Part shown: piece after piece, positions 1-20,000 of the stretch | Numbering within the stretch: position 1 is the first letter of the stretch | Layout of the letters: every line of letters starts with the position of its first letter | IMG/VR virus record: IMGVR_UViG_3300024298_000009 | Direction: 5' to 3' (one strand) | DNA length: 20,000 nt | Source: an uncultured virus (IMG/VR IMGVR_UViG_3300024298_000009) | Taxonomy: Duplodnaviria; Heunggongvirae; Uroviricota; Caudoviricetes | Position numbers and translations under genes: made by a program | Notes under the pieces: generated by a model | What the model was told of the DNA's origin: nothing | Database searches by the model: none | The model's input: the letters and a program-made list of their open reading frames with translations, nothing else

Positions 1-1
1 T

Positions 2-91
2 GCAGAAGTTAAATCAGAGTTAGCTAAGTTAGATAAGAAAAGTAAAAAGCGTATCATGGGCTTCTTACAAAAACAATTAGGAACTGCTTAA
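2..91 (+). CDS. 3' end of an upstream gene (partial), sharing a motif with the 93..1202 protein
   Basis: Frame 2 reads AEVKSELAKLDKKSKKRIMGFLQKQLGTA* and stops at TAA 89-91, one base before the next ATG. It resembles AQVKAKIAKLDKKGKQRILAGLQKELGA in the next ORF. Confidence 0.8.
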   Translation, partial: AEVKSELAKLDKKSKKRIMGFLQKQLGTA

Positions 92-92
92 A

Positions 93-1202
93 ATGAGATT
101 AAATGAATTCATAACCGAAGATAAAGAACTTGCCGAAGGCCCATTGATGAATAAAATTGGTAGTGCAGTTGGCAAAGCTGTAGGAACTGCTGCCAAAGGC
201 GTTGGCGCAGTTGCAGGTGGTATAGCTGGACTTGGTGCAGCCGCTAAAAAAGGATTTGCCGCAGGTAAAAGTACGGTAGCAGGTGCAGGAGATGACGAAG
301 AGCCCGCACAAGGTCAAGCAGCAGGTGGTCAACAAGCAGCAGGTGGTGCCGGTGGTCAACAAGCAGCAGGTGGTCAAGGAGGCATAACTAAACGTCAAGT
401 TGCTCAAGATATGTGGAAAAAAGGAAAGATTGGTCAAAATAATCCTTTCCTTAATGCAGCCAAGAAAGCAGGAATGCAAGATACAGATCAAGAAGAACCC
501 GCACAAGGTCAAGCAGGAGGCCAACAACCGGCCGCTAGCGGACAACCAGCACCTGCAAAAGGAAAACCAGCAGCAGGCGGAGCAGCACAACCTGATGCAT
601 CTGGAAGAATTGAACCAACTATGGAACCCGCACAAGGTCAAGCAGCAGGTGGTCAAGGACAAGATCAAGCTCAACAAGGCACGCCTTATGCACAGGTTAA
701 AGCTAAGATTGCTAAACTAGATAAAAAAGGTAAACAACGAATCCTTGCAGGACTACAAAAAGAATTAGGCGCACAACCAGCAGCACAAGAAAAACCAGCA
801 GCAGGCGGAGGTGCATTTGGACAAATGGCAGCAAACTTAGCCGGCGAACCAAATCCGGCAGTAAGCACTGGAACAAGCTCAACTGGTGGAACAACATCAA
901 AGGTTGGTGGAACAACAACCCATACAGCAAATCCAAACAATCCTAATATGCAACAACAACCAGCACCGGAACAGCCAGCTGCAACACAAGAACCCGCAGT
1001 TGAACCTACAATGCAGACAAAGAAACGTGCTCCGAGAAAATCAAGAGCTAAGGCTCCTGCTCAGCCTTCGGTGCAAGCCGCTGGCAAAGTTAACACAGGT
1101 AATCCTTTGGCAGAAGCACTTGAAAGAAAAATTGAAGAACACAAAAAGAAATTGTTCACCGAAAATGTTAAATCAGGTGCAACAAGTATTTTTAAAAAGT
1201 AA
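93..1202 (+). CDS. Low-complexity Gly/Ala/Gln/Pro-rich protein, putative internal head (ejected) protein
   Basis: 369-aa ORF. The N-terminus MRLNEFITE..LAE resembles the T4 capsid-targeting sequence with (I/L)xE prohead-protease sites. It has internal EPAQGQAAGGQ repeats. The function is inferred. Confidence 0.6.
   Translation: MRLNEFITEDKELAEGPLMNKIGSAVGKAVGTAAKGVGAVAGGIAGLGAAAKKGFAAGKSTVAGAGDDEEPAQGQAAGGQQAAGGAGGQQAAGGQGGITKRQVAQDMWKKGKIGQNNPFLNAAKKAGMQDTDQEEPAQGQAGGQQPAASGQPAPAKGKPAAGGAAQPDASGRIEPTMEPAQGQAAGGQGQDQAQQGTPYAQVKAKIAKLDKKGKQRILAGLQKELGAQPAAQEKPAAGGGAFGQMAANLAGEPNPAVSTGTSSTGGTTSKVGGTTTHTANPNNPNMQQQPAPEQPAATQEPAVEPTMQTKKRAPRKSRAKAPAQPSVQAAGKVNTGNPLAEALERKIEEHKKKLFTENVKSGATSIFKK
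303..660 (+). repeat. Intragenic direct repeats encoding EPAQGQAAGGQ / QAAGG
   Basis: cccgcacaaggtcaagcag starts at 303, 498 and 627. caagcagcaggtggt occurs three times within 315-375. aaaaccagcagcaggcggag occurs at about 563 and again at about 791. Confidence 0.9.
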
Positions 1203-1430
1203 TTAAAAGAATGGGAGGCCGCTTTTCTTAGTGGTCTCTAAATTATCTTTGATAATCTCGCCAATAATTTGGCGCTCTTCATAACTTAGATTCATACCTT
1301 CACTATAAGAAAGTCCTCGCATATACCAACAAGCCTTGAGGACATCCTTTTTAATCTCCCTAGCCTCTTTTTCTAATTTTGAAACAAGATGTAAGATCTC
1401 CGGCCTTGGGAGGTTTAAGACCTTACTGCG
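1203..1430 (-). CDS. Start-less -1 frame extension of the gp26-like gene (gp51/tail-chaperone-GT-like C-terminal part), 75 codons
   Basis: Open frame RSKVLNLPRPEILHLVSKLEKEAREIKKDVLKACWYMRGLSYSEGMNLSYEERQIIGEIIKDNLETTKKSGLPFF*. Its stop (1203-1205) directly abuts the stop of the convergent gene (1200-1202). The first ATG/GTG/TTG is at 1322, mid-frame. It is not in the supplied ORF track. Confidence 0.75.
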   Translation of the reverse strand, partial: RSKVLNLPRPEILHLVSKLEKEAREIKKDVLKACWYMRGLSYSEGMNLSYEERQIIGEIIKDNLETTKKSGLPFF

Positions 1431-1439
1431 AAAAAATTT
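1391..1439 (-). promoter_or_regulatory. Candidate -1 programmed ribosomal frameshift signal: slippery A_AAT_TTT_TTC plus downstream stem-loop
   Basis: Minus strand 1439-1430 reads A AAT TTT TTC, giving two overlapping X_XXY_YYZ heptamers in the correct frame. GTAAGGTCTT (1426-1417) pairs with GAGATCTTAC (1400-1391) as 10 bp with 2 G-U pairs, starting 6 nt after A_AAT_TTT. Confidence 0.7.
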
Positions 1440-2275
1440 GATTGATCCATTACTAAGTTAATAGTATATTGATGATGACATTCTGTACACTCGACTTCTT
1501 GAGTCTGTAGATCAATTCTACCTTTCATTTCTGTTACATGTTTATTAATTGTATTAAACACATCAGTTGATGCATTGTTAATAAATTCTTTAATCATAAC
1601 AGAATCAGTTACGGTAGCTTCTGGCGTAGTAATACTAGTGATACATCCTGCAATAACATCTACGGTTAATTCGGTTAATTTAATAAAACTTTCGCCAAAT
1701 TGCTCTAATTTTTCTTCATCTGACAATGAATCGTTAGTAACAACGTTTAATACTTTTTGTTGTTCTAATGCTTTAATACTAGCCTTAGTAATTTCTTGAT
1801 ATGAATAAGGTCTAATAGTAATAGTTAACGGTGGAACTTCAAGTTGATCTACATATCTAAAATTATTAAGTTTATCAAGATAACTCACAAGATTAATTTC
1901 AAATGTACTTCGATTACTGCATTCAGGGCAATCCGCATCAACTTCCATCATTTCACCGTAGGTTGCTGTTCTAATAGCAATTAAAACAGCATCTAAATCT
2001 AAACTTGGCATTTTCCAAGGATCTTTAATAGCAGGCACACAGCTTTTTATTAGTTCAACGGTTGCTTGACCATTCATTAACGCATCGGGAGTTTTAAACA
2101 TAAGTTCGTCCTTAGCGGTCATAGCATAGACAGCGTATTCGCCATTCTCACTCTGATCCAATACTCCCGGCGGATAATATTTGCCGTGACTTGGTAAAGT
2201 TACATATAACTTTGGTTGTCTAAAAAACGCTGCCAACGGATTTGTTGGTTTAGCAATTGATGGATTTTCTACCAT
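1415..2275 (-). CDS. T4 gp26/gp51-family baseplate hub / tail assembly protein
   Basis: 286 aa. It has the motifs LPSxGKYYP, V(Y)AMTAKDEL..KTPDAL.NG, DLDAVLIAIR.ATYG, two CxxC pairs (CPEC, CTEC) and a C-terminal NFF, typical of T4_baseplate-like proteins. It lies next to the tape measure gene. Confidence 0.75.
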   Translation of the reverse strand: MVENPSIAKPTNPLAAFFRQPKLYVTLPSHGKYYPPGVLDQSENGEYAVYAMTAKDELMFKTPDALMNGQATVELIKSCVPAIKDPWKMPSLDLDAVLIAIRTATYGEMMEVDADCPECSNRSTFEINLVSYLDKLNNFRYVDQLEVPPLTITIRPYSYQEITKASIKALEQQKVLNVVTNDSLSDEEKLEQFGESFIKLTELTVDVIAGCITSITTPEATVTDSVMIKEFINNASTDVFNTINKHVTEMKGRIDLQTQEVECTECHHQYTINLVMDQSNFFAVRS

Positions 2276-2287
2276 TTTTTAACCCCG

Positions 2288-2294
2288 ATAAATA
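2288..2294 (+). promoter_or_regulatory. T4-late-like promoter box ATAAATA driving the tape measure/head operon
   Basis: ATAAATA in the divergent intergenic gap. It matches the T4 late consensus TATAAATA, and the motif recurs upstream of other late genes. Confidence 0.6.
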
Positions 2295-2309
2295 AAAAGT
2301 AATCATACG

Positions 2310-2316
2310 TATTTAT
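2310..2316 (-). promoter_or_regulatory. T4-late-like promoter box ATAAATA driving the minus-strand gp26-like gene
   Basis: Plus-strand TATTTAT equals ATAAATA on the minus strand, 35 nt upstream of the ATG at 2275. Confidence 0.6.
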
Positions 2317-2343
2317 GTACGCACTTTTCTGGGATTTTGAATA

Positions 2344-5300
2344 ATGGCAGAAGTAACCGGTGATCTAGGCGGTCAACCAATTGAATTAAACAACGCGGCT
2401 ACCGAAGCCACCCTCAAGGAACTTGTCCGTGCTGTTGCTCTGTTGGCTGCTAAACAAGGCAAAGACGGCAAATCTGAAAAACAAATTGCAGAGTCGATGA
2501 AAAAATTCTACAAGCAACTTGAAGAATCATCGGACGGATTTAAAAAATTAACCAAACTGCAAAAAGAAAAGATAAAACAAGACGAAGAAGAAAACAAAGC
2601 TCAAAAAGAAAAGATAAAACAATATCAAGAAGAACTTAGAGCCCAGGAAAAATTTATTGAAGGGACAAAATTAGTTGCTTCTGGATTTACAAAAGTTGCT
2701 AGTAGTGCCAGTGCATTAGGATCATCATTCTTTGGGTTAATGAATGATCTTGCCAATATGGGAAACAACATCAATGCTGTTGGCGGCATTATTGGCAAGA
2801 TTCCAATTTTTGGTGGAGTTCTTGGGTCGGCCTTTGGTGCTGTAGCAGGCGCTGCTACAAAAACTTATGAATCGTTTAACAAAGCAGCAAGTGTTGGTGC
2901 AAACTTCGGAGGAAGCATTCAAGAAATGCAACGTCAAGTTTCGGCAACAGGGCTAACACTTGACCAGTACACAAGCATTATTAAAAATAACAGCGAGAAC
3001 TTAGCATTATTTGGCGGTAGTGTAACTCAAGGTGCAAAACGTTTAAGTGAAATGTCTCAGAAGATTAGAAATAGTCAACTTGGAGACGAACTTGCAAGAT
3101 TGGGTTATTCAACTGAAGATATTAATAATGGCATTGCTAGATATTCAGCAATAGTCACAAAGAGCGCCGGCGGAGTAAGAGTTTCAAACGAAGAGTTAGT
3201 TAAAGATACGGGTGACTATCTAAGAAATTTAGATGCTGTTTCAAAACTTACTGGTAAGAATAAAGAAATACTTCAAAGAGAACAAGAAGCAAGACAAGCC
3301 GATGCGCAGTTTAGAATATTACAGGCTAAAGTTGGAAAAGAAGGTGCTAAAAATTTAAACATGCTAATGGATAGCATGAGTGAATCTGAAAAACAAGCAG
3401 CACAAACTATTTTAGCCACAGGATCATTAAACAGCGAAGCAGCTCAGCAATTAATGATTACAAATCCGCAGGCCGCAAAAGCATTGCTACAGGCTTCTCG
3501 TGATATTAGACAATCAGGAACAATGACTAGAGAAGGAGCATTTAAGATTGACGAAGCATTCAATGCTGGTGCTATTGCTAGTCAAAAAAATGCTGCTCAA
3601 GTAACGTTGGCCACGTATGATGCTGAAAAATGGGGCAAGGGTATTGTTTCTAATTTAGATCGAGCCAACAGGGCAGAAAAAGATAACGGAAGTCTAAGAG
3701 CACAAGCGGCACAACAAGAATTAGACAGACAAAAACAATTAACAGAAGGCGCCAAAGGTCTTGATCCTGCTAAAATGAAAAGTAACATGGAAAAGTTAGC
3801 TGACCTTTCAAATAAATTTATGGCAGCATTGGCTAATAGTCCGTTGTTAGATAAAATGTTGCAGTCATTTACAGCGGCCATAGAAGAACTAACTCCTATA
3901 TTAATTGAAGGATTGACTTGGGTGGCAGACCATGCAAAAGAAGTAGCTATAGGAATGGGAATACTAGGTGGACTTATAGTAGTTTCAAGCGCCATTACTG
4001 CTGCTGCAAATTTAGTTCAAGCAGTTAATGTTTTAGGTTTAACAGCACTGGCATCAGCAGTATGGGCAACCGTAGCTCCTGTACTAGCGGCCGCAGCGCC
4101 ATTTATTGCAGTAGCGGCAGCGGTTGCAGGTGTTGTTTATCTCTTTAAGAAATTATATGATAGTGGTTGGACATTTGGAACAATTATTGATGCTTTAAAA
4201 GATAATTTCCAACGTTTATGGATGACTTTGCAAGATTGGATGGATTCTTTATTAGAGAAAATACCAAATGCAATTGGTGGTATTAGTAAAGCAGAAGCTG
4301 ATAGACGTAGAGCCTTAAGGGATGACCAACGTAAAGAACTTGACGCTAAAGAAAAAGATAGAGACGATAAGAGAAAACAAAAAGCAATAGAACGTGGAAC
4401 TTACGAGGAAGATAAGAAAGCTACTCAAGAACATACTAAAACAACACAAGCTGCTACCGCTGCGGCTCAAGAGGCAACTAAAACAACAGAAGCTCAAGTA
4501 GAAGCACAGAAGAAAATTAATTACACAAGTCCTGAAGAAACATTTAAAGCCTTTAAAGAAAGAAAAACTATGGGAGGAGGAGCTCCTTCACCTGCCACAC
4601 CTGCTACTGCACCCGCTGCACCAACAGGAGGACCGGCCCCAGGAGCTGCTGGACCGTTAAATCAAGATCAACAGAAAAACATGGCTCTAGTTGAAGCAGC
4701 TCTTAAAAAACAAGGAATTACTGATCCTGCTTATGTTGCTGCTGTCAAAGGCAACATAATGAAAGAAACTGGCGGTAAGAGTATTTCTGAAAATATGAAT
4801 TATGCTAATACATCTAACGATCGTATTAGAAAAATATTTGGTAGTAGGGCTGCTGGAAAATCCGATGCAGAACTAAATGCTATCAAAGGCGACCAGCAAA
4901 AAATGGGCGAAATGATGTATGGTTCCGGCACAGCAATGGGTCGTCAAATGGGGAATACGGAACCCGGAGATGGATGGAAATATAGAGGCAGAGGTTTTAT
5001 TCAGTTAACTGGTAAAAATAATTATGCCGCTGCATCAAAAGCCATCTACGGTGATGATAGATTAGTTAAAAATCCAGATTTAGTTAACGATCCACAGGTT
5101 GCTGCGGAAGTTAGTGCTTGGTATATGAAAAAAGGTCAAGCCGGAATGGCTAGCAAACTTGGTATGGGCACTTCTGGATTATCTCAAGAACAAGCAAACT
5201 TGTTAGCAACAAGCCAAATTGCCGGTGGAGACATAAGACGAAAAGGCGCAATTGGAGAAGAAATTTTAGGAAAAGTAAATTCTTATTCTGGACAATTTGC

Positions 5301-5577: not shown

Positions 5578-5591
5578 GGATCATTAATTAA

Positions 5592-7289
5592 ATGAGTTGG
5601 AAAAAATATTTTACTCCTGTCAACATCGATAACCAACAAGGAACAATGAGTCCTATTGGCAGTAGAGGGCGACCAGGACCTGCAAGAACTAATTATTCAT
5701 CATTCTTGCCTGACGTATATGCAGGTAATCCAAATCGTGTCGAACGATATATGCAATATGACACTATGGATATGGACAGCGAAGTTAACGCAGCTCTAGA
5801 TATCTTAGCTGAATTTTGTACACAAAAAGATAGAGAAAATGGAACAGCGTTTCAACTATCATTTAAAGGCAAACCAACCGGAACCGAAGTTAAGTTAATT
5901 AAAGAAAGCCTACAGAAGTGGGCAAAACAAAATCAATTTGACACAAGAATTTTTCGTATAGTTCGAAATTCTTTCAAATACGGAGATTGTTTCTTTGTTA
6001 GAGATCCAGAAACTAAAAAATGGTTGTATGTTGATCCTGCTAAGGTTACAAAAATTATCGTTAACGAAAGCGAAGGAAAAATTCCCGAGCAATATGTTTT
6101 AAAAGATATTAATTTTAACTTTGCAAATCTAATTGCAACAACTCCTCATGCTACATCAAATACACAACCTAGTGGTACTGGTAGTTATACCGTATCGGGC
6201 GGTGGATTTGGTAGAGGATTTGTTGGGGATGCAGCAAGACCTCCTGGCACTAGATTTCACAATCAAGTAAACGAAATAACGGTTGATGCAAAAAATGTTG
6301 TGCATATTAGTTTAAGCGAAGGATTAGACAACAATTATCCTTTTGGCAATTCAATTTTAGAATCTGTATTCAAAGTCTACAAGCAAAAAGAATTGCTTGA
6401 AGATGCTATTATTATCTATCGTATACAACGTGCTCCAGAAAGACGTATTTTCTATGTAGACGTTGGAAATATGCCAGCACACATGGCTATGAGCTTTGTT
6501 GAACGTGTTAAAAACGAAATCCAACAAAGACGTATTCCTAGCGCCAGCGGTGGTGGCAATAATTTAGTTGACGCTAGTTATAATCCACTAAGTGTAAACG
6601 AAGATTACTTCTTCCCACAAACTGCTGAAGGTCGTGGTTCTAAAGTTGAAACACTACCGGGTGGTACTAATCTAGGTGAAATTACAGATTTACGATTCTT
6701 TACAAACAAACTTTTCCGTGCTTTAAGAATACCAGCAGCATACTTGCCAACAGGTATTGAAGAAGCAAGTAATACTATTGCCGACGGAAAAGTTGGAACG
6801 GCATATATTCAAGAATTACGATTTAATGAATATTGCAAACGTTTACAATCAATGATAGCGCAAACATTTGATGTTGAATTTAAACTTTGGATGGCTGCGC
6901 AGGGCGTAAACATTGACAATAGTTTATTTGAATTAAAATTTAATACTCCACAAAACTTTGCTGCTTATCGTCAATCAGAACTTGACACAGCAAGAGCAGC
7001 AACATATTCACAAGTTTCACAAATTCCTCATCTAAGCAAACGTTTTGCACTAAAACGCTTCTTAGGATTAACTGAAGAAGAAATTAAAGAAAATGAATCA
7101 TTATGGCGCGAAGAAAATGGTTCTAACCTAACACCTACGGATGATGCTGCTGGAGACTTAAGATCGGCTGGCGTAACACCGGGAGGTATGGCGGCAGAAG
7201 CGGGTGGACAAGACGCAGAAGCACCCGACGATTTAGCAGCACAAGCAGCTGAACCAGGGGCTGAACCTGAAGCTGCTCCAGCAGCCTAA
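5592..7289 (+). CDS. gp20: Portal protein, T4 gp20-like
   Basis: 565 aa with the motifs LLEDAIIIYRIQRAPERRIFYVDVGNMP, EDYFFP..EGRGSKVETLPGG.NLGEI.D and LFRALRIP, characteristic of T4-like portals. Confidence 0.95.
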   Translation: MSWKKYFTPVNIDNQQGTMSPIGSRGRPGPARTNYSSFLPDVYAGNPNRVERYMQYDTMDMDSEVNAALDILAEFCTQKDRENGTAFQLSFKGKPTGTEVKLIKESLQKWAKQNQFDTRIFRIVRNSFKYGDCFFVRDPETKKWLYVDPAKVTKIIVNESEGKIPEQYVLKDINFNFANLIATTPHATSNTQPSGTGSYTVSGGGFGRGFVGDAARPPGTRFHNQVNEITVDAKNVVHISLSEGLDNNYPFGNSILESVFKVYKQKELLEDAIIIYRIQRAPERRIFYVDVGNMPAHMAMSFVERVKNEIQQRRIPSASGGGNNLVDASYNPLSVNEDYFFPQTAEGRGSKVETLPGGTNLGEITDLRFFTNKLFRALRIPAAYLPTGIEEASNTIADGKVGTAYIQELRFNEYCKRLQSMIAQTFDVEFKLWMAAQGVNIDNSLFELKFNTPQNFAAYRQSELDTARAATYSQVSQIPHLSKRFALKRFLGLTEEEIKENESLWREENGSNLTPTDDAAGDLRSAGVTPGGMAAEAGGQDAEAPDDLAAQAAEPGAEPEAAPAA

Positions 7290-7295
7290 CTTAGG

Positions 7296-7301: not shown

Positions 7302-7306
7302 TTATT

Positions 7307-8237: not shown

Positions 8238-9128
8238 ATGGCAGATAAGAATTTATTAAGCCAAATGCTAGAGCATTTGGTTAACGACGATCAAGCAAAA
8301 GCTGATGAGCTTTTCCACGAATACGTAGTACAAGCATCACGCGAAATCTACGAAAATTTAATTGAATCTGAAATCGCAGAAGAAGAAGATAAAGAAGACG
8401 AAGACATGGACGAAGCTGCACAAGATGATGATGCAGAAGAAGACAAAGTTGACGAAGCTTCCGAAGAAGATAGCGACGAAGATGATCTAGATGAAAACTT
8501 CGAAGATGTTGCTTTTGAAGGTGGCGACGAGCCTGAAATGGGCGGTGATCCAACAGACGACCTAGAAGGTGACCTAGAAATGGGTGACGAAGAAGGCGGC
8601 GAGCAATCTGAAGAAGAAATTATGCAAGATTTAGAGTCTATTGTTGACGAACTACAAGCTAAATTTGCGCAGCTAAAAGGCGAAGAAGAAGCCCAAGGCG
8701 AGTTTGGTGACGAAGAAGGCAGTGACGATATGCCTGAAGAAGAAGGTTTTGATTTAGAAACCGTTCGTGAATATGTAGAAAAAGTTCCAGCAGGTCACGG
8801 TGCTGAAAAGAAAGGTGCTGCTGAAAAATCTGACAACACAAAGTCTACAATCGACAACATGAAGAATGATATGGGCGGTACAACTGCTAACATCCTTTCT
8901 TCTAAAGAAGATGCAGCTACTTACGCTAACCAAGGCGCATTAAAAGGCAATGGTCTTGAAAAAGGTAAGGTAAGCGACAATCCAGATGCTAAAGGCAACG
9001 TGAATGTACCAGGCGGTAACGCTGGTAAAACTGGTTTCAAATCAAAAGAACCAGGTCATGGTGCTGAGAAAAAAGGTTCCGGCGAAAGCGCCGATAACAA
9101 GCAAAGCCTTTTCCGTGGTCGTAGATAA
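8238..9128 (+). CDS. Highly acidic prohead core protein (positional analogue of T4 gp67/gp68)
   Basis: 296 aa with an Asp/Glu-rich N-terminal part containing several (I/L/V)xE motifs and a Gly/Lys-rich C-terminal part. It has a strong SD and lies between portal and protease. Confidence 0.7.
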   Translation: MADKNLLSQMLEHLVNDDQAKADELFHEYVVQASREIYENLIESEIAEEEDKEDEDMDEAAQDDDAEEDKVDEASEEDSDEDDLDENFEDVAFEGGDEPEMGGDPTDDLEGDLEMGDEEGGEQSEEEIMQDLESIVDELQAKFAQLKGEEEAQGEFGDEEGSDDMPEEEGFDLETVREYVEKVPAGHGAEKKGAAEKSDNTKSTIDNMKNDMGGTTANILSSKEDAATYANQGALKGNGLEKGKVSDNPDAKGNVNVPGGNAGKTGFKSKEPGHGAEKKGSGESADNKQSLFRGRR

Positions 9129-9142: not shown

Positions 9143-9769
9143 GTGAAAACTACCTTAGCAGAACATCTGAGTTTTGACCAGGCTAAGATTGTCTTAGAGA
9201 GCGAAGGTGAGGGCGACAAAAAGTCGCTCTTCCTAAACGGGATTTGCATCCAGGGCGATATCCGAAATGCAAATCAGCGTGTTTATTCTTCTCAAGAAAT
9301 TGGCAGGGCTGTCAAGACGCTCAACGAACAAATCTCTGGCGGATACTCCGTGCTAGGGGAAGTTGATCATCCTCAGGATTTACGTATCAACCTCGACCGT
9401 GTATCACACATGATTACTAAAATGTGGATGGACGGCCCTAACGGCTACGGAAAACTAAAAATTCTTCCTACTCCAATGGGTCAATTAGTTAAGACTATGT
9501 TGGAGTCGGGAGTTAAACTTGGAGTTTCAAGTCGTGGATCTGGAGAAGTTGATAACAGCGGAAACGTTCAAGGATTTGAAATTATTACGGTTGATGTAGT
9601 AGCACAACCAAGCGCACCAGGCGCTTATCCAACACCAGTTTATGAACACTTGATGAACAATACAGGTGGATATCAGGCTTATAGAATAGCACAAGAAGTT
9701 AAAGGCGACCCAAAGGCACAGAAATACTTAGCAGAGAGCCTAAAGCGAATAATCGCAAGGCTCAAATAA
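9143..9769 (+). CDS. gp21: Prohead core protease, T4 gp21-like
   Basis: GTG start with SD GAGGA. Motifs NxNxRVY, LGEVDHP, RVSH, LGVSSRGSG and DVVAQPSAPGAYP. Confidence 0.95.
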   Translation: MKTTLAEHLSFDQAKIVLESEGEGDKKSLFLNGICIQGDIRNANQRVYSSQEIGRAVKTLNEQISGGYSVLGEVDHPQDLRINLDRVSHMITKMWMDGPNGYGKLKILPTPMGQLVKTMLESGVKLGVSSRGSGEVDNSGNVQGFEIITVDVVAQPSAPGAYPTPVYEHLMNNTGGYQAYRIAQEVKGDPKAQKYLAESLKRIIARLK

Positions 9770-10893: not shown

Positions 10894-12063
10894 ATGTCAC
10901 AACTACTCGAGTCACGCTGGTCGGAAACCAAAGAGGCACTATTAGAAGGCCTACAAGGTAACAAGCGTACCGTTATGGCAACTACTCTAGAAAATACTCG
11001 CAAGTATCTAGCAGAAAGTGCTACAGCTGGTGCTACTTCCGCCGGTAACGTTGCAACACTAAATCGCGTCATTCTTCCAGTAATCAGACGTGTTATGCCA
11101 ACCGTTATTGCTAACGAGTTGGTAGGCGTACAGCCTATGACTGGACCAGTTGGTCAGATCCACACATTGCGTGTTCGCTATGCAGATAGCTTTAACAGCA
11201 CAAGTGGTACTGATATTACAGCCGGTGACGAAGCACTAAGCCCATTCAAGATTGCTGAAGGCTATTCTGGTGCAGCTAACGACAAGGCAGCTTCTACAGC
11301 AGCTCTTGAAGGCGTAGCTGGTAACAGACTAAGCATTCAAATCTTGAAACAAACCGTTGAAGCTAAAACTCGTAAGTTATCAGCTCGCTGGACTTTCGAA
11401 GCTGCACAAGATGCACAAGCTCAACAAGGTATTGATATCGAAGCAGAAATCATGGCCGCATTGGCACAAGAAATTACTGCTGAGATTGATCAAGAAGTTA
11501 TTGGTAGCTTAAACAGCCTAGCTGGTACCGTATTAACATACGATCAAAACAGCGTTTCTGGTACTGCTACATTCGTTGGTGACGAACACGCTGCTCTAGC
11601 TGTTCAAATCAACCGTGCTTCTAACCTAATCGCTCAGCGTACACGTCGTGGTGCTGGTAACTATGCAGTTGTTAGCCCAACAACATTGACACTTCTACAA
11701 AGTGCTACAACTTCTGCTTTCGCAAGAACAACAGAAGGTACATTCGAAGCACCTACAAACACTAAGTTTGTTGGTACATTGAACGGCGCAATGAGAGTGT
11801 TTGTTAACACATACGCTACAAGCGATGACGTTCTAATTGGTTACAAAGGTTCTAGCGAATCTGATGCTCCAGCATTCTACTGCCCATACATTCCATTGAT
11901 GAGCAGCGGTGTTGTATTGGATCCATCAACATTTGAACCAGTAGTTAGCTTCATGACACGTTATGGTTATGTAGAACTAACTAACACAGCTTCTTCTCTA
12001 GGTAATGCAGCTGACTACCTAGCTAAAGTTGCTGTTACAACAGCTAACTTGAAGTTTGCTTAA
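10894..12063 (+). CDS. gp23: Major capsid protein, T4 gp23-like
   Basis: 389 aa with the motifs ILPVIRRVMP..IANELVGVQPMTGP, VEAKTRKLSARWTFEAAQD, EITAEIDQE, FYCPYIPL and FMTRYG. It has SD AAGGAGA and strongly biased codons. Confidence 0.97.
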   Translation: MSQLLESRWSETKEALLEGLQGNKRTVMATTLENTRKYLAESATAGATSAGNVATLNRVILPVIRRVMPTVIANELVGVQPMTGPVGQIHTLRVRYADSFNSTSGTDITAGDEALSPFKIAEGYSGAANDKAASTAALEGVAGNRLSIQILKQTVEAKTRKLSARWTFEAAQDAQAQQGIDIEAEIMAALAQEITAEIDQEVIGSLNSLAGTVLTYDQNSVSGTATFVGDEHAALAVQINRASNLIAQRTRRGAGNYAVVSPTTLTLLQSATTSAFARTTEGTFEAPTNTKFVGTLNGAMRVFVNTYATSDDVLIGYKGSSESDAPAFYCPYIPLMSSGVVLDPSTFEPVVSFMTRYGYVELTNTASSLGNAADYLAKVAVTTANLKFA

Positions 12064-12456: not shown

Positions 12457-12471
12457 CAAAGGAGAAAACAA

Positions 12472-12855
12472 ATGGGACGTCCATTAAGAAAAGATGTCAG
12501 AGGTACTGACGTAATTAACACACCAGTTAGCGATACTGGTATTACCGTAAAATTTCATGACGGTAGCTCATTAAGAACAGACGGAATCATCATTAAACAA
12601 CGTGGTGCAAAAACTTTTGTTGTTGCTAGAAGAGGTTCCCCAACAACTATCTATACTTGTGTTTTAACAAACGGAACACCAAGTGCAGGCGGTGAAATGC
12701 AAATCACTGGTTCAACATCTGGAATGTTAGATGCTAACCTAGTAAATTGCGCAAAAATTACTAAGCGTATTTTTACAGACTTTAGCGGCAATCGTTATAC
12801 ATGGTACTTAGAGTCTGATTCATCTGCAGATTATATTGTTCTAACAGCAGTTTAA
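12472..12855 (+). CDS. Hypothetical virion protein (possible head decoration)
   Basis: 127 aa with a strong SD, its own late promoter box and a position just downstream of the capsid gene. The function is inferred from context only. Confidence 0.6.
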   Translation: MGRPLRKDVRGTDVINTPVSDTGITVKFHDGSSLRTDGIIIKQRGAKTFVVARRGSPTTIYTCVLTNGTPSAGGEMQITGSTSGMLDANLVNCAKITKRIFTDFSGNRYTWYLESDSSADYIVLTAV

Positions 12856-12871
12856 TTTTTAGGAAGTATTC

Positions 12872-13888: not shown

Positions 13889-13901
13889 GAGATAGAAAAA
13901 C

Positions 13902-14270
13902 ATGATATATAGCACCAGACTAACAACAACTAGCGATACACTAGTATACACCAGTAGTACAACTGGGGCTCCAATTGCAGGTCCTGTATTAGGACAAGAA
14001 AATGCAGTTACATCGATTATCATCTGCAACACAGGGACTCCAAATTTAACAGACGAAACCGTCAATAGTTCTACAATAACAATTAATTTATGTGCAGGTG
14101 GCGGTAGTGCTTCTGATACTAATACAATTGTTAAAAATTTAATTATACCTGCAGGAGAAACCGTATTTTTCAGCGATGAAAAAATTGTTCTAGATGCAGG
14201 AGATACAATTAGAATGACTGCAAGCGCAGCAAATCTATTAAGTATAACCGTGAGCACATTGGCAGTATGA
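13902..14270 (+). CDS. Small beta-sandwich-like virion protein (paralog of 18043..18375)
   Basis: 122 aa with the pattern IIICN...IVKNLIIPAGETV...EKIVLDAGDTIR. Confidence 0.7.
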   Translation: MIYSTRLTTTSDTLVYTSSTTGAPIAGPVLGQENAVTSIIICNTGTPNLTDETVNSSTITINLCAGGGSASDTNTIVKNLIIPAGETVFFSDEKIVLDAGDTIRMTASAANLLSITVSTLAV

Positions 14271-14767
14271 GATTTCTTAAACAAAAAACTATTAGCAAAT
14301 ATAGTCCTAGTGATAACACTTTGTTTACTAATCACTATGGTCGTGCAGTTATGGATCTAACCGGTGGTCTTAGACTTCCTAAAGGAACAGAAGCTCAAAG
14401 ACCGCAAACATCTAGTGTAAGAAATCCGGAAGGAGCTGACGGATTTATTAGATATAACACAGACACAAATTCTATAGAAGCATTAATTAGCGGCGTTTGG
14501 GAAGTAGTTAGAGCGCCGGGCGCAACATCAATATACAAACAAACGTTAGGACCAGGCGACGATATTGAAACAACATTTGGCCCGCTGTATTCTATTCCTG
14601 CAGCCGATGATAATATTATTGTCCTAGTTGAAAACGTAATTCAAATTTCGGTAACAAACTACAATATATCCTATAATCACTTGGGTTCAGGAGATGCTTA
14701 TATTGTGTTTACTAGTGCAGTACCATTAGATAAGTCAATAACCATATATTTCGGTTTCGCAAACTAA
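14267..14767 (+). CDS. Virion structural protein with fibre-knob-like P.GT..QRP...G.IRYNT motif
   Basis: 166 aa, ATGA-coupled to the upstream gene. The motif LRLPKGTEAQRP...GFIRYNTDTNSIE is shared with the 15704 and 16980 proteins. Confidence 0.7.
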   Translation: MRFLKQKTISKYSPSDNTLFTNHYGRAVMDLTGGLRLPKGTEAQRPQTSSVRNPEGADGFIRYNTDTNSIEALISGVWEVVRAPGATSIYKQTLGPGDDIETTFGPLYSIPAADDNIIVLVENVIQISVTNYNISYNHLGSGDAYIVFTSAVPLDKSITIYFGFAN

Positions 14768-14779
14768 TATTAAAACGGT

Positions 14780-14785
14780 TAAATA
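14780..14785 (+). promoter_or_regulatory. Late promoter box TAAATA
   Basis: Intergenic TAAATA followed by GGAG SD-like motifs and ATG 14814. Confidence 0.55.
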
Positions 14786-14813
14786 TACGTATCAATGGAG
14801 CGGAGATACGTAA

Positions 14814-15701
14814 ATGGCTTTTGTTTTAGCAGATAGAGTTAAAGTTCGTTCACATAGCACAGGAACGGGTGATTTCATCTTGACCACAACTTATCCTGGT
14901 TTTCAGAGTTTTAATGATGCTATCGGTGACGGAAACGAAACTTATTATCTTATTATAGATAATGCAGGTAATTGGGAAGTAGGTCGCGGTACTTATTTTA
15001 CAATCACTTCTAGTCTAACACGAGATACGATTGTATCTTCATCTAACAATAATTCTTTAGTTAATTTTCCAGTAGGCGGCAAAAATGTTTCAGTGACATT
15101 TCCGTCAAGCCTTGCAGAAAGTTATCTTGTCGGTGGCGGGGGCAGCACCACTGACAGCTTCAAATACATAGCAGTATCAGGACAATCCACCGTTTCTGCT
15201 GACAGCTCAACCGATACATTAACTTTAATAGCCGGAACCGGAGTTAGTATAACAACTAATGCTGTTTCAGACTCTATTACAATTTCTAGCTCAGGACAAA
15301 GTGTAGAGCTTGCAAACAACGGACATACGTTTGCATTAGATACCTCTGGAAGATTAAATTTAGATTCCTCAATTAGTATCTCTAGCGAATATCAAACGGT
15401 AAATTCTGGAATTGAAACTAGTATATACAGCAGCAATGGAAGATACATTCGAGCAGTTAAATTAGTAGTATTTGTTGAATCTTTTAGTCCATATGCCTCG
15501 CAAGCAAATGATTTATTGGCTATCTACGATCAGTTAAGTGGTAATGTTTATGTAACGGCTTATGGATTAATTTATACTGGAGCAACCCCGTTGGCAACAT
15601 TTGATGGAAATTATGTTGCTGGAAGTATAGAAATTACAATAACATCAACGGTTAATGCTAATGTTCGAGTTAATGTATTAGAAATGTTTGGAACTGATTA
15701 A
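14814..15701 (+). CDS. Mosaic tail-fibre-like virion protein
   Basis: 295 aa. The N-terminal domain LADRVK...TGTG...GFQSF..IG.GN.TYY.I....WEVG.GTY...L.RDT is followed by an F..IAVSGQS.V.ADS.TDTLTL.AG.GV.ITT module. Ser/Thr-rich. Confidence 0.65.
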   Translation: MAFVLADRVKVRSHSTGTGDFILTTTYPGFQSFNDAIGDGNETYYLIIDNAGNWEVGRGTYFTITSSLTRDTIVSSSNNNSLVNFPVGGKNVSVTFPSSLAESYLVGGGGSTTDSFKYIAVSGQSTVSADSSTDTLTLIAGTGVSITTNAVSDSITISSSGQSVELANNGHTFALDTSGRLNLDSSISISSEYQTVNSGIETSIYSSNGRYIRAVKLVVFVESFSPYASQANDLLAIYDQLSGNVYVTAYGLIYTGATPLATFDGNYVAGSIEITITSTVNANVRVNVLEMFGTD

Positions 15702-15703
15702 TT

Positions 15704-16843
15704 ATGTCAGATATTATTTCAGATGGTGGATTTAGCGAAGGGTTTGGTGGCGATGAATATAATCCTGCCTCTGCCCTAGGGCGAATTAGTGGAAAATTAT
15801 TAAAAGAAAATCTTTTAAGAAACGGTGTAGATCTTACATTTAGAAATACATCAACCGATCCTGATCTTTTATATATTGATGTTAATAACAATAGGATTGG
15901 TATTAACAAAGAAAATCCAAATTTTGCACTTGAAGTTATTGGAAAAACTAAAGTTTCAGATAATTTTATAGCCAGCGGAACCACAGCTACATTTGATAAT
16001 ATTGTTTTTAATTCTACAGGCTCAATAACTTCTACCGTGGGTCCTATTATTATTGAACCTCAAGGTAGTAATCCGTATGTTGAATATGGAAAAGTTACAA
16101 ATCCTAAATTAGAATTAAAAGACAATTACATTAATGTTACAACTACAAATACAAGTTTAATATTAGATCCTCACGGAACAGGAATAGTTGATTTTCAGTC
16201 AAGTGTTAATATTAATAATAATTTGTCTGTAGGAGGAAATATCAGTGCCGCAGGTAATTTACAATTTAACGGTACACTAACCATTGGCGATAACGCTGTT
16301 GATACCGTTGTTGTATCTCCGGACTTTACACAAAGTATTATTCCTGGAGATAACAACCTGTACGATCTTGGAAAACCAAACAAACGCTGGGCAGAATTTT
16401 GGTTTTATGACGATCCGGGCGTTACAAGCATTAATACAACAAATTTAATTATTAGTGGGCAAACACTAATAACAGGACATACAATATCAACAATTCAAAG
16501 CAACGACGATCTTGTACTTGACTCAGCATCTGGGAATATAACATTAGAAAAGATTAATATAAACGCTGGTGTTATAACAAACTTAGAAAATACCCCAATT
16601 ACTATTACACAAACTGCCGCTGGATGGACAAAATTTAATACAGATACTGGTGTAGTTGTTCCTGTAGGTAATAATTCTCAGCGTCCATACATTGAAGAAG
16701 GTGACACTCGCTGGAATACCGAAAAAGGTTATTTAGAGTGTTTTGATGGTAATGTTTATACCGTAGCCACTGGTGGTGGCGTTGTAGTTACATTACCTAT
16801 CATGGAAGAGCTTACTAATCTTTGGGCCCTTGTAGTGGGTTAA
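15704..16843 (+). CDS. Fibre-like virion structural protein (paralog of 16980..18035)
   Basis: 379 aa with LGRISG.LLK.NL.R.GVDL.F, DLLY.DV.N..IGIN, YDLG...KRW and a C-terminal P.G...QRP...G.TRWNT motif. Confidence 0.75.
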   Translation: MSDIISDGGFSEGFGGDEYNPASALGRISGKLLKENLLRNGVDLTFRNTSTDPDLLYIDVNNNRIGINKENPNFALEVIGKTKVSDNFIASGTTATFDNIVFNSTGSITSTVGPIIIEPQGSNPYVEYGKVTNPKLELKDNYINVTTTNTSLILDPHGTGIVDFQSSVNINNNLSVGGNISAAGNLQFNGTLTIGDNAVDTVVVSPDFTQSIIPGDNNLYDLGKPNKRWAEFWFYDDPGVTSINTTNLIISGQTLITGHTISTIQSNDDLVLDSASGNITLEKININAGVITNLENTPITITQTAAGWTKFNTDTGVVVPVGNNSQRPYIEEGDTRWNTEKGYLECFDGNVYTVATGGGVVVTLPIMEELTNLWALVVG

Positions 16844-16857
16844 TTTTCCTATACGAC

Positions 16858-16863
16858 TAAATA
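16858..16863 (+). promoter_or_regulatory. Late promoter box TAAATA
   Basis: Intergenic TAAATA 116 nt upstream of ATG 16980. Confidence 0.55.
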
Positions 16864-16870
16864 CTACTAA

Positions 16871-16962
16871 TTGCAAGAGAAGACCAATTTTCTTGTAAAA
16901 TTAACCTGTGGTAAACCCGCATAGAGCGAACAGCTGAAAAAGTGGTTATCCGTGAAACACGG
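16871..16962 (+). ncRNA. Candidate structured cis-regulatory RNA leader (multi-hairpin)
   Basis: An 11-bp hairpin (16871-16898), a TAACC/GGTTA stem (16902-16906/16944-16948) enclosing TGTGG-taaac-CCGCA, and a CCGTG-aaa-CACGG hairpin (16950-16962) just before SD GGGGAGAG. Confidence 0.45.
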
Positions 16963-16979
16963 TGTCTAGGGGAGAGCGT

Positions 16980-18035
16980 ATGGCGATTGGTCGTATTTCC
17001 GGGCCGCTCTTAAAAGCCAATCTCATTAGAGATGGTGTGAATTTGGCTTTTGAGACCGACCTTCTGTATCTTGATGTAGTCAACTCCAAGATTGGCATAA
17101 ACTCTGCTGATCCACAATTCGCCCTAGACGTAGTAGGTACAACCAGAACAACAGATTTAGAAGTTACTAATCAATTTGATATTGGTAACTTTACCATTTC
17201 TGGTAACACAATCAACAGCACACTTCCAACTATTAGCTTTACCGCATCAGGCGGTGAGGCAACAGCATACCATTCTAGACTAATTGTTAATGATCTAGAA
17301 CTTAATAATAACACTATTTCAACAACCGTTTCTAATTCAAATTTAGAATTACGCCCTAACGGAACAGGAATAGTTGACATTCAAAGTTCTGCAAACATTA
17401 CAGGAAATGTTACAATTGGCGGAAACATAAATGCTACAGGAAATGTTACAATTGGCGGCAATTTAGTAATCGGTGATAGTTTATTCGATACCGTTACAAT
17501 TAACGCTAGTATTAAAAGCGACCTAGTACCAGAAACAGATAATACTTATGATATCGGTTCATCAGGAAATAGATGGAAAGATATCTATGCTAATAATTTT
17601 TATGCTAATACTTTAAATTTAAACACTTTTGATGTTGGAAGCATAACAATATTTGATAATACAATCACCACAACATCAGGGCAAGATTTAATTTTAGATC
17701 CAAACGGCTCTGGTGCGTTAAGAGTTGGTAATTTTTCTATTAGAGATAATGTAATTACAAATACGGTTTCAAATTCTGTTACTGAATTTGTACAATCTGG
17801 TGCAGGGTATTTTAAAATCACAGGAACAAATGCGTTTGTTCCACCTAAAGGAACTTCTGGACAAAGACCAGTAGCACCTTATCTAGAAGTTGGTATGACT
17901 CGTTATAATACTGACTCCAAGGCTTTAGAAATTTGGGACGGATTAGTTTGGGCCAGTCCGGCAGGTACCATTGGTGCTGTTTCTGAAGGTACAGCAAACG
18001 ACATTGCAATCAAATATGCATTGACATTAGGATAA
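16980..18035 (+). CDS. Fibre-like virion structural protein (paralog of 15704..16843)
   Basis: ATG 16980 follows SD GGGGAGAG and is preferred over GTG 16962. It starts MAIGRISGPLLKANLIRDG, has repeated N.I.T....L.L.PNG.G modules and ends AIKYALTLG. Confidence 0.8.
   Translation: MAIGRISGPLLKANLIRDGVNLAFETDLLYLDVVNSKIGINSADPQFALDVVGTTRTTDLEVTNQFDIGNFTISGNTINSTLPTISFTASGGEATAYHSRLIVNDLELNNNTISTTVSNSNLELRPNGTGIVDIQSSANITGNVTIGGNINATGNVTIGGNLVIGDSLFDTVTINASIKSDLVPETDNTYDIGSSGNRWKDIYANNFYANTLNLNTFDVGSITIFDNTITTTSGQDLILDPNGSGALRVGNFSIRDNVITNTVSNSVTEFVQSGAGYFKITGTNAFVPPKGTSGQRPVAPYLEVGMTRYNTDSKALEIWDGLVWASPAGTIGAVSEGTANDIAIKYALTLG
17399..17458 (+). repeat. Exact 24-nt direct repeat with 36-nt period (TGNVTIGG twice)
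   Basis: tacaggaaatgttacaattggcgg at 17399-17422 and 17435-17458. Confidence 0.9.
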
Positions 18036-18042
18036 GAATAAA

Positions 18043-18375
18043 ATGCCAACCACGTTTAAACATGCAGTTAACACAGGAATAGGAACATCACCAGTTGACG
18101 TATTACAAACCCCTATCGGTTATAGAATTACCGTGATCGGATGTAATCTAGCAAACACAACTGACTACGATGTTTGCGTTGTTGACGTTTATGTAGTTAG
18201 TGAGGATAGTGTTGAAGCAGTCTATATCAAAGGACTACCAATACCTCCAAACTCATCGGTAAAGTTAATTACTAACGGAGAAAAATTAATATTACCAGAA
18301 ACAGCAGGATTAAGAATTGTCAGCGATACCGAAACAAGCGTTGACGCAGTAGTAAGTTACGTTGAGATATCATAA
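18043..18375 (+). CDS. Small beta-sandwich-like virion protein (paralog of 13902..14270)
   Basis: 110 aa with the pattern VIGCNLAN...YIKGLPIPPNSSV...GEKLIL....LRIVS...VDAVVSYVEIS. Confidence 0.75.
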   Translation: MPTTFKHAVNTGIGTSPVDVLQTPIGYRITVIGCNLANTTDYDVCVVDVYVVSEDSVEAVYIKGLPIPPNSSVKLITNGEKLILPETAGLRIVSDTETSVDAVVSYVEIS

Positions 18376-18385
18376 GGAGTAGAAG

Positions 18386-18760
18386 ATGGCAGGCGGAAAT
18401 AATTATTATTTAGGCGATGATCCGGTATCACGCCTAGGCGACACTCCTAGATTTTTCTACGGACTAAGAAAAAATGAAAATGGAAGTTTATTTTTAGCTA
18501 GGGTTGACCAAGTTAAAGATAAAGGAATTATTACAATTAATAATCCAGGTTTAGAAGAAAATAATTACACAGATTTTGAAACTGGTGTAGATTTTTTTGA
18601 AGGCATAGATGTTAACCATAACCCTGTTTACGAAAATTTAAACTATACTCAGTATAGATGGGACGATCGTCCAATGTTCTATTATATTAATGAAGAAGGT
18701 GAATTAGTTGTTCGTGTTAATGAAGGTTATGTCTATGATAACGGATCATCAGAGGAATAA
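18386..18760 (+). CDS. Hypothetical virion-module protein
   Basis: 124 aa with SD AAGGAG. Motifs FFYGLR...G.L, Y.QYRWD and YYINEEGELVVRVN. Confidence 0.7.
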   Translation: MAGGNNYYLGDDPVSRLGDTPRFFYGLRKNENGSLFLARVDQVKDKGIITINNPGLEENNYTDFETGVDFFEGIDVNHNPVYENLNYTQYRWDDRPMFYYINEEGELVVRVNEGYVYDNGSSEE

Positions 18761-18766
18761 TAATAA

Positions 18767-20000
18767 ATGGCAGATTTTAAATTAAGTAGATTTAGATATA
18801 CTTGGCAGGGCGAATGGGCTCCTGCAACAAGATATAATCCTGATGACATTGTAAGTTACGGTGGAAAATCTTTCACCTGTTTAACAACACACGTTTCAAA
18901 TTTTGATTTTTATGCTGACTTAGAATTTTATAATAATGATATTCCTCCATTATTAGTTCCAAGATGGGAATTGGTAGCAGACGGTGTCAGCTGGTTAGGA
19001 GACTGGGAAACCGATACATATTATAAAGTTGGTGACCTTGTTAAGTTTGGCGGAACAACTTATCTATGCGTAGAAGGTCATACTTCTTCTGCCCCAGATC
19101 CTGAAAATCCAACTTCTGCAACTTTAGATTCATATTTTTCAGCAGATGCTGATAAATGGACAATTCAAATCACTTCAAAAAATTGGGCAGAAGATTGGGC
19201 ACCATCAACATATTATAAATTAAACGATGTAGTTCGTTATGGTGGTATTGCTTATCGTTGTAATTCCTCACACCTGTCAGCCGGATCATTTGAATCTGGT
19301 TTAGAAAATAGTCAAAGTTTTTGGGACGTAGTTAATGATTCTCTAGATTGGCAAGGAACTTGGACTATTAACACACGATATAAAGTAAATGATGTTGTCA
19401 AATATGGTGGTGTTACTTACAAATGTACCGTTGGTCATAAAGCAGCAGGTTCTGATACACTAGGGTTAAATGCTGATTACGGTAAATGGAGTATTTTACA
19501 TAACGGATACGAATATGTCGGTACATGGGAAGATAGCGTTACCTATAAACTTAATGATGTAGTAAAATACGGTTCTTATCTGTACTATTGCACAACATTT
19601 CATTTATCTGCTACAAATTTTGATATTAGTAATTGGTCTATATTTTGCCCTGGAGCAGAATACGATGTAAATTGGTCATCAACAACAAATTATCAACAAG
19701 GCGATATTGTTAGATACGGTGGAAACTTATATGTTGCATTGAGCAGTAGCGTAGTCGGACAAAACCCATCAACACAGACAACAGCATGGCAATTATTATT
19801 TCAAAGCACAAGAATTGCCGGAACATGGGATGCATTTATTCAATATAAAATTGGAGATGTTGTTCGAAGAGGCGGAAATTTATATCTAGCATTTTCAGAT
19901 AGCATTGGCCAAGATCCTGATATTCTTAATGACGGAAGCTCAACAAATTCTGCATATTGGGATTTAGTTATTCCCGGCTCTCGTTGGGTTGGTGTATGGA
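18767..20000 (+). CDS. Large virion protein with tandem CBM5/12 (ChiC-BD)-like Trp-rich repeats (partial, runs off the window)
   Basis: Not in the ORF track. Manual translation MADFKLSRFRYTWQGEWAPATRYNPDDIVSYGGKSFTC... stays open to the end. It has seven W....Y..(G/N/D)D(V/I/L)V.(Y/F/R)G(G/S)..Y/F repeats plus the start of an eighth. Confidence 0.85.
   Translation, partial: MADFKLSRFRYTWQGEWAPATRYNPDDIVSYGGKSFTCLTTHVSNFDFYADLEFYNNDIPPLLVPRWELVADGVSWLGDWETDTYYKVGDLVKFGGTTYLCVEGHTSSAPDPENPTSATLDSYFSADADKWTIQITSKNWAEDWAPSTYYKLNDVVRYGGIAYRCNSSHLSAGSFESGLENSQSFWDVVNDSLDWQGTWTINTRYKVNDVVKYGGVTYKCTVGHKAAGSDTLGLNADYGKWSILHNGYEYVGTWEDSVTYKLNDVVKYGSYLYYCTTFHLSATNFDISNWSIFCPGAEYDVNWSSTTNYQQGDIVRYGGNLYVALSSSVVGQNPSTQTTAWQLLFQSTRIAGTWDAFIQYKIGDVVRRGGNLYLAFSDSIGQDPDILNDGSSTNSAYWDLVIPGSRWVGVW

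Follow-up and report, generated by a model that had tools for sequence, protein, structure and literature searches.

The DNA considered here, hereafter the window, is a stretch of 20,000 nucleotides from an uncultured tailed virus (IMG/VR record IMGVR_UViG_3300024298_000009; Caudoviricetes) and corresponds to the minus strand of positions 5335-25334 in a 30,477-bp virus record (the contig). The subject of this study is one short word, the palindrome ACWGT (W standing for A or T), which is missing from the window, and its companion ACSGT (S standing for C or G), which is frequent. The window carries a T4-like structural module with genes for a baseplate hub, a lysozyme-like/lysin-domain protein of 1077 amino acids, a portal, a prohead protease, a scaffold-like protein, the major capsid protein and a tail fibre. 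Several of the genes, all on the + strand, contain Thr-Val codon pairs written ACC-GTN or ACG-GTN. Such a pair is found as ACC-GT at 6189 in the portal gene (5592..7289; phrog_213, E 5e-109), at 8760 in an open reading frame (ORF) at 8238..9128, and as ACG-GT at 9587 in the prohead protease gene (9143..9769; phrog_207). The major capsid protein gene (10894..12063; phrog_138, E 3e-101) has four, all ACC-GTN, at 10969, 11101, 11353 and 11527, together with a fifth ACSGT that is out of frame, at 11612. Further downstream, ACC-GT pairs occur at 14058 and 14160 in the ORF at 13902..14270, at 16304 in that at 15704..16843, at 17490 in that at 16962..18035 and at 18130 in that at 18043..18375. The gene for the tail fibre (1832 amino acids) has its start portion at 18767..20000 and continues past the end of the window. 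All 12 Thr-Val positions named in the preliminary description of this DNA are indeed in-frame (codon frame 0) ACS-GTN pairs, two of the coordinates having to be shifted by one base (11353 instead of 11354 and 16304 instead of 16303).

The window belongs to a much larger genome. A same-species record of 219,444 bp (G001) includes the contig at 99.997% identity. A 96-kb record (G006) adds 65,144 bp to it, giving a same-species union of 284,588 bp, and a 129-kb record from a lineage about 86% identical (G008) spans from the distal end of G006 to the remaining end of G001. These overlaps lead to a closed genome type of about 367 kb; the CheckV completeness of G001, 62%, implies a genome of about 354 kb. 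With the portal gene as a query, 80 related loci were retrieved, and the relatives of the tail-fibre gene led to the same-species records, to the 86% lineage and to a second lineage free of ACWGT. Among named phages, the best portal identities (46-52%) are to jumbo phages of 287-490 kb infecting Proteobacteria. At the DNA level, the sole match to named phages is a 175-bp segment of the capsid gene, 79-81% identical to that of the Serratia, Erwinia and Yersinia jumbo phages of about 355 kb.

The preliminary description had noted that ACWGT seemed wholly missing from the window, where tens of sites would be expected. The exact count is 0 on both strands, against 41.70 (standard deviation 6.18) in 200 dinucleotide-preserving shuffles. 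In agreement with the earlier estimate of well over 100 ACAG or ACTG words, the + strand has 102 ACAG and 54 ACTG, 0 of them followed by T. ACSGT, said to be common, occurs 51 times for 19.89 expected (standard deviation 4.23), a number reached by 0 of the 200 shuffles. Usual restriction sites are present in the window, as had also been noted, with 61 GATC, 23 GGCC, 3 GAATTC, 1 GGATCC, 16 CCWGG and 71 GCWGC.

The absence extends to the whole contig, which has 0 ACAGT and 0 ACTGT. A maximal-order Markov model predicts 35.7 sites (z = -7.5, the lowest among all 5-mers) and a dinucleotide model about 65; ACWGT ranks first in an unbiased scan of all degenerate 4-6-mers of the contig, and first also in the unbiased degenerate-motif scan of G001; no degenerate 4-7-mer is more strongly depleted. 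In 1000 within-gene synonymous-codon shuffles, which keep the protein and the codon usage, ACWGT is expected 47.1 +/- 4.4 times and never fewer than 35 times. In the same shuffles, ACSGT is enriched (83 for 38.7 +/- 5.3), and the other 15 NNWNN palindromes are unremarkable, the strongest deviation being that of CCWGG (z = -3.4). In G001, a second-order Markov model predicts 459 sites for 0 observed. Since the absence persists under these four null models, bias in shorter words or in codon usage does not explain it. Testing the depletion against Markov and codon-shuffled nulls had been suggested at the outset; under both kinds of null, ACWGT stays far from its expected frequency. In the same-species union, base composition predicts 612 sites for 0 observed, and ACSGT is found 739 times for 373.5 expected. 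The other records tell the same story, with 0 sites for 276 expected in G008 (128,727 bp), 139 in G009 (65,105 bp), 62 in G007 (29,138 bp) and 60 in G003 (27,898 bp). The stretch of G008 that covers the remaining 82 kb or so of the genome type has 0 ACWGT as well.

The depletion is confined to the word itself. The 26 words that differ from ACWGT by one mismatch occur at 0.89-1.74 times their expectation and none is depleted, ACSGT standing at the top of this range (739 against 424, 1.74-fold). The avoided word is a short 5-bp palindrome, having the form of a restriction-modification (R-M) site, and both of its versions, ACAGT and ACTGT, are missing. Codon choice reveals how it is avoided within genes. 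In the contig, Thr is written ACA or ACT in 454 of 528 cases before codons that do not start with G, and in 170 of 213 cases before G-starting codons other than those of Val (ACC or ACG in the other 43). Before Val, it is ACC or ACG in 41 cases out of 41, which bears out the codon usage remarked upon earlier. The level of ACSGT is raised because Thr-Val is always written ACC/ACG-GTN.

Alignment of the relatives to the contig allows these replacements to be followed site by site. The relatives' ACWGT sites in aligned coding regions amount to 1,565, counted per relative, so that the events are not independent. Thirty of them fall in gaps, 921 correspond to differing amino acids and 614 to identical ones. 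At the 614 sites with identical residues, those in frame 0 read ACCGT (272) or ACGGT (84) in the phage, and those in frames 1 and 2 are replaced by varied synonymous alternatives, some of which involve several base changes (for example AGT to TCA). In the capsid gene, relatives with identical amino acids use ACA/ACT-GTN at the positions homologous to the Thr-Val sites. The replacements therefore fit whichever synonymous change the frame allows, which excludes a base-calling error as well as a single mutational process.

The distribution of the trait was followed in 416 related loci, retrieved around six different genes; many come from the same records and are thus not independent. ACWGT is absent from 20 of them (1 of 80, 11 of 102, 3 of 80 and 5 of 154, according to the retrieval). 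Since the observed/expected ratio is at least 0.56 in all the remaining loci, the trait is all-or-nothing. Related phages bearing ACWGT have about 2-4 sites per kb, with similar G+C and homologous proteins, so that roughly 600-1,100 sites would have been eliminated from the genome type. All 15 loci with at least 85% nucleotide identity to the phage lack the word, and every locus at 79.3% or less carries it, the nearest being L108 (79.3%) and L446 (77%). The comparison with related phages, proposed in the preliminary description, thus places the absence in particular lineages, the change falling sharply between 85% and 79% identity. Contigs that share a dataset prefix differ in this respect (0 sites in L107, 7 for 10 expected in L110), which rules out a dataset artefact. 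Selection is still acting. In an alignment of G001 with G003 (27.9 kb, 85.65% identity), ACWGT is at 0 in both genomes, and for each of the remaining 15 NNWNN palindromes 15-152 sites occur in one genome only; turnover of ACWGT has thus been zero since the split from this relative.

A second lineage, made of G002 and of the loci L094-L096, is also free of ACWGT, with 0 sites for 96 expected in 44.6 kb. It shares 72-81% nucleotide identity with G001 where the two can be aligned, and the tail fibres are 63% identical. A tree was built from seven concatenated structural proteins of 27 taxa (6 of 33 having been dropped because of sparse data) using IQ-TREE in quick mode with the LG+G4 model. In this tree, starred branches stand between the pair formed by G000 and L086 and the L094-96 group. 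The closest relatives of the latter group are the ACWGT-positive pair L089/L097, its sister, which implies at least two changes of state. A single ACWGT-free clade is rejected by the approximately unbiased (AU) test (ΔlnL 79, p = 0.0008). On this topology, two independent purges would be the more parsimonious history, since a single purge would have had to be completely reversed three times, and the second lineage fits recurrent exposure to the same agent. The replacement codons are neutral in this respect. Of 51 fully conserved sites, 21 carry an identical 5-mer in G001 and G002, and synonymous sites are near saturation (control Thr codons are identical at 292 of 685 positions), so that a shared and a separate purge are not separable by this means.

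These phages avoid sites as a rule, and the word avoided differs from lineage to lineage. Expressed as observed/expected, CATG is at 0/61 and 0/56 in L027 and L044, CTAG at 0/42 in L059, GTAC at 0/42 in L111 and GTSAC at 0/19 in L113. GCWGC is at 0/19 in L136, where AGCT and RCATGY are purged too. AGCT is at 5/91 in L089; L155 shows GCGC at 0/21 and TGCA at 16/84, and L088 shows RTTAAY at 0/28. Other cases among the related loci, whose list also includes L014 and L164, are RCATGY at 0/18 and GTWAC at 6/35. Most of the words purged in the sister lineages are classical Type II sites; RTTAAY is not known to be a described specificity. G001 itself also strongly avoids AAGCTT (7 against 99.5), RCGCGY (0 against 46), GCRYGC (12 against 81) and MGCGCK (9 against 48). 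As these four avoidances are common to several ACWGT-positive relatives, they may reflect an older or broader pressure from host R-M systems. As a separate observation, ACSGT is at 0 in L010 and L075, where base composition would predict about 9 and 6 sites; the Markov expectation is already near 0 in these two loci, which points to the depletion of a shorter CG-containing word.

The explanation that best accounts for these data is the avoidance of sites cut by a host restriction enzyme of Type II-like character specific for ACWGT, to which we give a probability of about 0.8. The preliminary description had argued for strong selection against an ACWGT-specific activity, and the complete, motif-specific and lineage-specific absence, reached through synonymous codon choice, upholds this view. 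Of the two agents it offered, a host restriction system and a phage nuclease, the former is favoured, because sister lineages have each purged a different Type II palindrome, because no DNA methyltransferase was found in the phage and because the four recognisable phage nucleases are conserved in ACWGT-bearing relatives; the last point speaks against the latter. The host population would carry an endonuclease, most likely an orthodox homodimeric one of Type IIP-like character, reading ACWGT with A/T, but not G/C, at its centre. This type is suggested by the symmetric motif and by the Type II palindromes that the sister phages avoid. Each ACWGT in incoming unmethylated phage DNA would then be a potential lethal cut, and the loss of any site would improve the chance of a successful infection, until all of the 600-1,100 or so sites had been removed by selection. 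Within genes, removal was synonymous, ACA/ACT-GTN becoming ACC/ACG-GTN, NAC-AGT/TGT becoming NAT- or -AGC/TGC/TCN, and CAG/CTG becoming CAA/TTR/CTN. Newly arising sites are still being removed. The sequences themselves show the absence, its specificity, its confinement to certain lineages, the synonymous route and the continuing selection; the host enzyme and its type are deduced from them.

The host is probably Gram-negative, in view of a match to an Rz1/LysC-like spanin (28.3 bits), of the homologues of the curli proteins CsgG and CsgF and of the proteobacterial hosts of the named relatives. It may further be imagined that ACWGT is the site of a not-yet-described restriction or defence specificity in an uncultured Gram-negative bacterium, potent and lasting enough to have led at least two jumbo-phage lineages, each on its own, to lose every one of about 1,000 sites. 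This extended proposal is a tentative one, which we would place somewhat below even odds. Site avoidance is in itself classical; the ACWGT specificity was not found described in the searched sources, and that it is undescribed is unproven.

Several points weigh against this interpretation. No ACWGT-specific enzyme was found in the literature searched, nor a corresponding methyltransferase, REBASE not being covered, and such an enzyme is not among the well-known ones; the cognate system is thus hypothetical. The string ACWGT itself appears in the literature, among the matches listed, in degenerate primers, none being an R-M specificity. The word has 0 rows in the species/site table (file 4) of Rusinov et al. 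2018 (PMC6286503), where control sites are present, and 0 occurrences in the methyltransferase and motif tables of Blow et al. 2016, which contain the control motifs GCWGC and GTSAC. It has likewise 0 occurrences in the supplements of the marine metaepigenome survey (Hiraoka 2022, PMC8919816) and in the searched supplements of the freshwater one (Hiraoka 2019, PMC6329791), both of which contain control motifs. The ClpB-like gene, compared using one genome per species, has its top matches (53-59%) on short contigs of metagenome-assembled genomes and matches of about 40-48% over many phyla, so that it displays no host affinity. Mosaicism of the structural genes could mislead the inference of two origins, drawn from seven proteins and a quick tree of 27 taxa. 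About 82 kb of the genome type is represented by the 86% relative alone. Finally, a phage-encoded restriction endonuclease may hide among the ORFs without a family, the coverage of such enzymes by Pfam being poor.

ACWGT might also be read by a host system that is not an orthodox Type II R-M system. It could be of Type IIS/IIG or Type III, BREX-, DISARM- or Dnd-like, or a DNA-binding silencer. What the phage genomes record is selection against the word, not the mechanism behind it, and ACWGT is missing from the searched tables of known R-M specificities, both of which leave room for such a system. Nevertheless, the motif is a short and symmetric 5-bp palindrome with a degenerate centre, and ACAGT and ACTGT have gone together. 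A symmetric motif of this kind is what marks recognition by a homodimeric Type IIP enzyme, CCWGG, GCWGC, GGWCC and GTSAC being examples, and the motifs of BREX, Type I and Type III systems are asymmetric. Furthermore, the survey by Rusinov et al. 2018 (PMC6286503) reports that Type I and IIG sites are not avoided and that Type III sites are avoided very rarely. Such a system is accordingly unlikely.

Alternatively, the phage might encode its own ACWGT-specific nuclease, directed against host DNA or competing phages, and spare itself by lacking the sites. The genome type was searched for the corresponding genes by Pfam scans of 445 ORF translations (from the contig, G001, the G006 extension and the G008 gap, plus 17 ORFs straddling boundaries; E <= 1e-5). 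Genes with a nuclease fold are present, of the SegE-type GIY-YIG, TnsA-like PD-(D/E)xK, HNH, Endonuclease_NS and UvdE families; some Type II enzymes are GIY-YIG proteins. In addition, numerous ORFs fall into no family, and restriction endonucleases are not easily recognised. However, four of these nucleases are conserved in relatives that have ACWGT at normal density. The SegE-type gene has relatives in 19 related loci, with up to 95% identity, ACWGT-bearing phages included. The TnsA-like gene has 579 relatives, the best 80 of the 579 being 79-100% identical, and occurs in ACWGT-bearing phages too. The HNH gene is found at 80-92% identity in 10 ACWGT-bearing loci, and the Endonuclease_NS gene at 83% and 72% identity in ACWGT-bearing relatives. 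These four enzymes were therefore rejected as the agent, and among them no nuclease is confined to the site-free lineages, nor was a methyltransferase so confined found, the comparison covering genes of recognised families.

The search of the rest of the genome for R-M and nuclease genes, which the preliminary description had recommended, also yielded no DNA methyltransferase family among the 445 translations. The sole match with a methyltransferase fold is a generic class-I S-adenosylmethionine (SAM) enzyme (L185:9138-9788). Six-frame searches with PF01555, PF00145, PF02086 and PF02384 gave no match either, while named control genomes did. The phage would thus be protected by avoidance and not by self-methylation, and a self-directed nuclease would have no partner methyltransferase. 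An argument of another kind is that there would be no gradual route to such a state. A self-cutting enzyme would do harm as long as any of the several hundred sites was left, whereas with a host enzyme each loss helps. The clade-wide mosaic of other purged Type II palindromes, too, argues for external, host-specific agents. All in all, a nuclease of the phage itself is improbable, even more so than an unorthodox host system. The same Pfam scans gave no integrase family among the 445 translations. Taken together with the T4-like structural and replication genes and the lack of detected methyltransferase families, this makes the phage virulent-looking and presumably non-temperate.

The SegE-type GIY-YIG protein deserves a remark of its own. 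It is a stand-alone protein of 144 amino acids, whose gene lies on the minus strand (L082:2024-2458), some 2 kb ahead of the start of the window, and keeps the same syntenic place across the clade. Its conservation and its fixed position look unlike those of a sporadic homing endonuclease. A role in the breakdown of host DNA, resembling that of T4 EndoII, is possible.

Two further explanations have almost nothing left to stand on. A by-product of composition or mutation, through codon-pair or shorter-word bias or through decay driven by methylation and without selection on the word, could find some comfort in the under-representation of the 4-mer ACTG/CAGT itself (154 against 238), but this reading is refuted by the four nulls, by relatives that have the same proteins and similar G+C with 2-4 sites per kb, by replacements that vary with the reading frame instead of following one mutation type, and by the normal level of every one-mismatch neighbour, a mutational bias not being expected to yield exactly 0 of several hundred. 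An artefact of sequencing, base calling or assembly at a modified motif can be dismissed as readily: systematic miscalls at methylated motifs do occur in some long-read assemblies and a W-to-S miscall could mimic the ACSGT enrichment, but at least six records from independent assemblies are 99.98-100% identical, the solutions in frames 1 and 2 need several base changes (AGT to TCA) with coding frames staying open, and the contigs of common dataset prefix (L107 and L110) disagree.

Beyond the structural module, the genome type carries a number of other genes. Giant fibre-like genes (window 18767-20000 and beyond; L192:5277-18962; L545) encode, besides the tail fibre, a protein of 3071 amino acids with CBM_5_12 repeats next to it and a protein of 4561 amino acids with FG-GAP and CBM_5_12 domains; two fibre genes share a 60-bp repeat at 98.3% identity. 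A 504-amino-acid protein encoded at L554 (G008:58594-60108) has an Mtd_N domain (major tropism determinant N-terminal) and may hint at the target of a diversity-generating retroelement. Auxiliary genes are found in the G006 extension (L527:74-4072, L526:18103-18336, L527:5469-7122, L527:10618-12696) and at L195:10591-13778. This set encodes DnaK, DnaJ, a ClpB-like ATPase, ClpS, Hsp20 and ribosomal protein S21, and also a heme oxygenase with a ferredoxin-dependent bilin reductase, the curli CsgF/CsgG homologues and a CHASE2-adenylate/guanylate cyclase. A ClpP gene is located in the G008 gap region. Pieces of the preQ0/7-deazaguanine pathway are represented by FolE (L194:11611-12357), QueD/PTPS (L534:10438-10971) and a weak QueC (L535:11986-12585); six-frame searches gave no TGT/DpdA transglycosylase. 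More than 12 radical-SAM genes are present, with clusters at L533:5512-19456 and L193:15279-19268.

Returning to host restriction-site avoidance, the case constitutes a natural experiment, unusually clean and large, on the speed and completeness with which selection, acting through synonymous change, can rewrite a genome. It predicts a restriction specificity, ACWGT with a central W told from S, which would make a useful new enzyme if it is real. The gap would then be a fingerprint tying these phages, and unrelated phages that share it, to their host. More generally, the mosaic of words purged across the clade (ACWGT, CATG, CTAG, GTAC, GTSAC, GCWGC, AGCT and GCGC) suggests that each uncultured jumbo phage holds a readable record of the R-M repertoire of its host. 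Combined with metagenomic methylomes, this record could help assign hosts to a widespread group of uncultured phages.

Among known systems, the closest in recognition sequence are the ACNGT-specific Type II enzymes HpyCH4III, Tsp4CI, TaaI and Bst4CI. They resemble the proposed agent in the outer AC and GT bases and in the 5-bp palindromic architecture. Yet these enzymes would select against ACSGT too, as was pointed out in the preliminary description, and ACSGT is enriched 1.74-fold in the phage instead of being depleted. The agent must therefore tell a central W from S. Such discrimination at the centre of a 5-bp site is practised by several Type IIP enzymes, namely EcoRII (CCWGG), TseI (GCWGC), AvaII (GGWCC) and Tsp45I (GTSAC). 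The logic, NNWNN, is the same, and sister phages have purged sites of this kind (GCWGC, 0/19 in L136; GTSAC, 0/19 in L113). These specificities are on record, whereas that for ACWGT was found in none of the searched sources. In the species/site table of Rusinov et al. 2018 (PMC6286503), ACNGT has 14 rows, Campylobacter species included, and GTSAC has 16.

The same survey offers the broadest frame for comparison. According to Rusinov et al. 2018 (BMC Genomics 19:885, PMC6286503), avoidance is concentrated in non-temperate double-stranded DNA phages and on orthodox Type II sites, and roughly one viral genome in ten shows complete or near-complete elimination, nearly always of a site of the orthodox Type II kind. 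With the cases described there, the present phage shares the complete, lineage-specific loss of a short palindrome and the lack of a methyltransferase of its own. It differs from them in that the survey paired avoided sites with established enzymes from identified hosts, while here host and enzyme are both deduced from phage sequence. The scale is unusual as well: a 5-bp site, with several hundred expected copies, is missing from about 367 kb.

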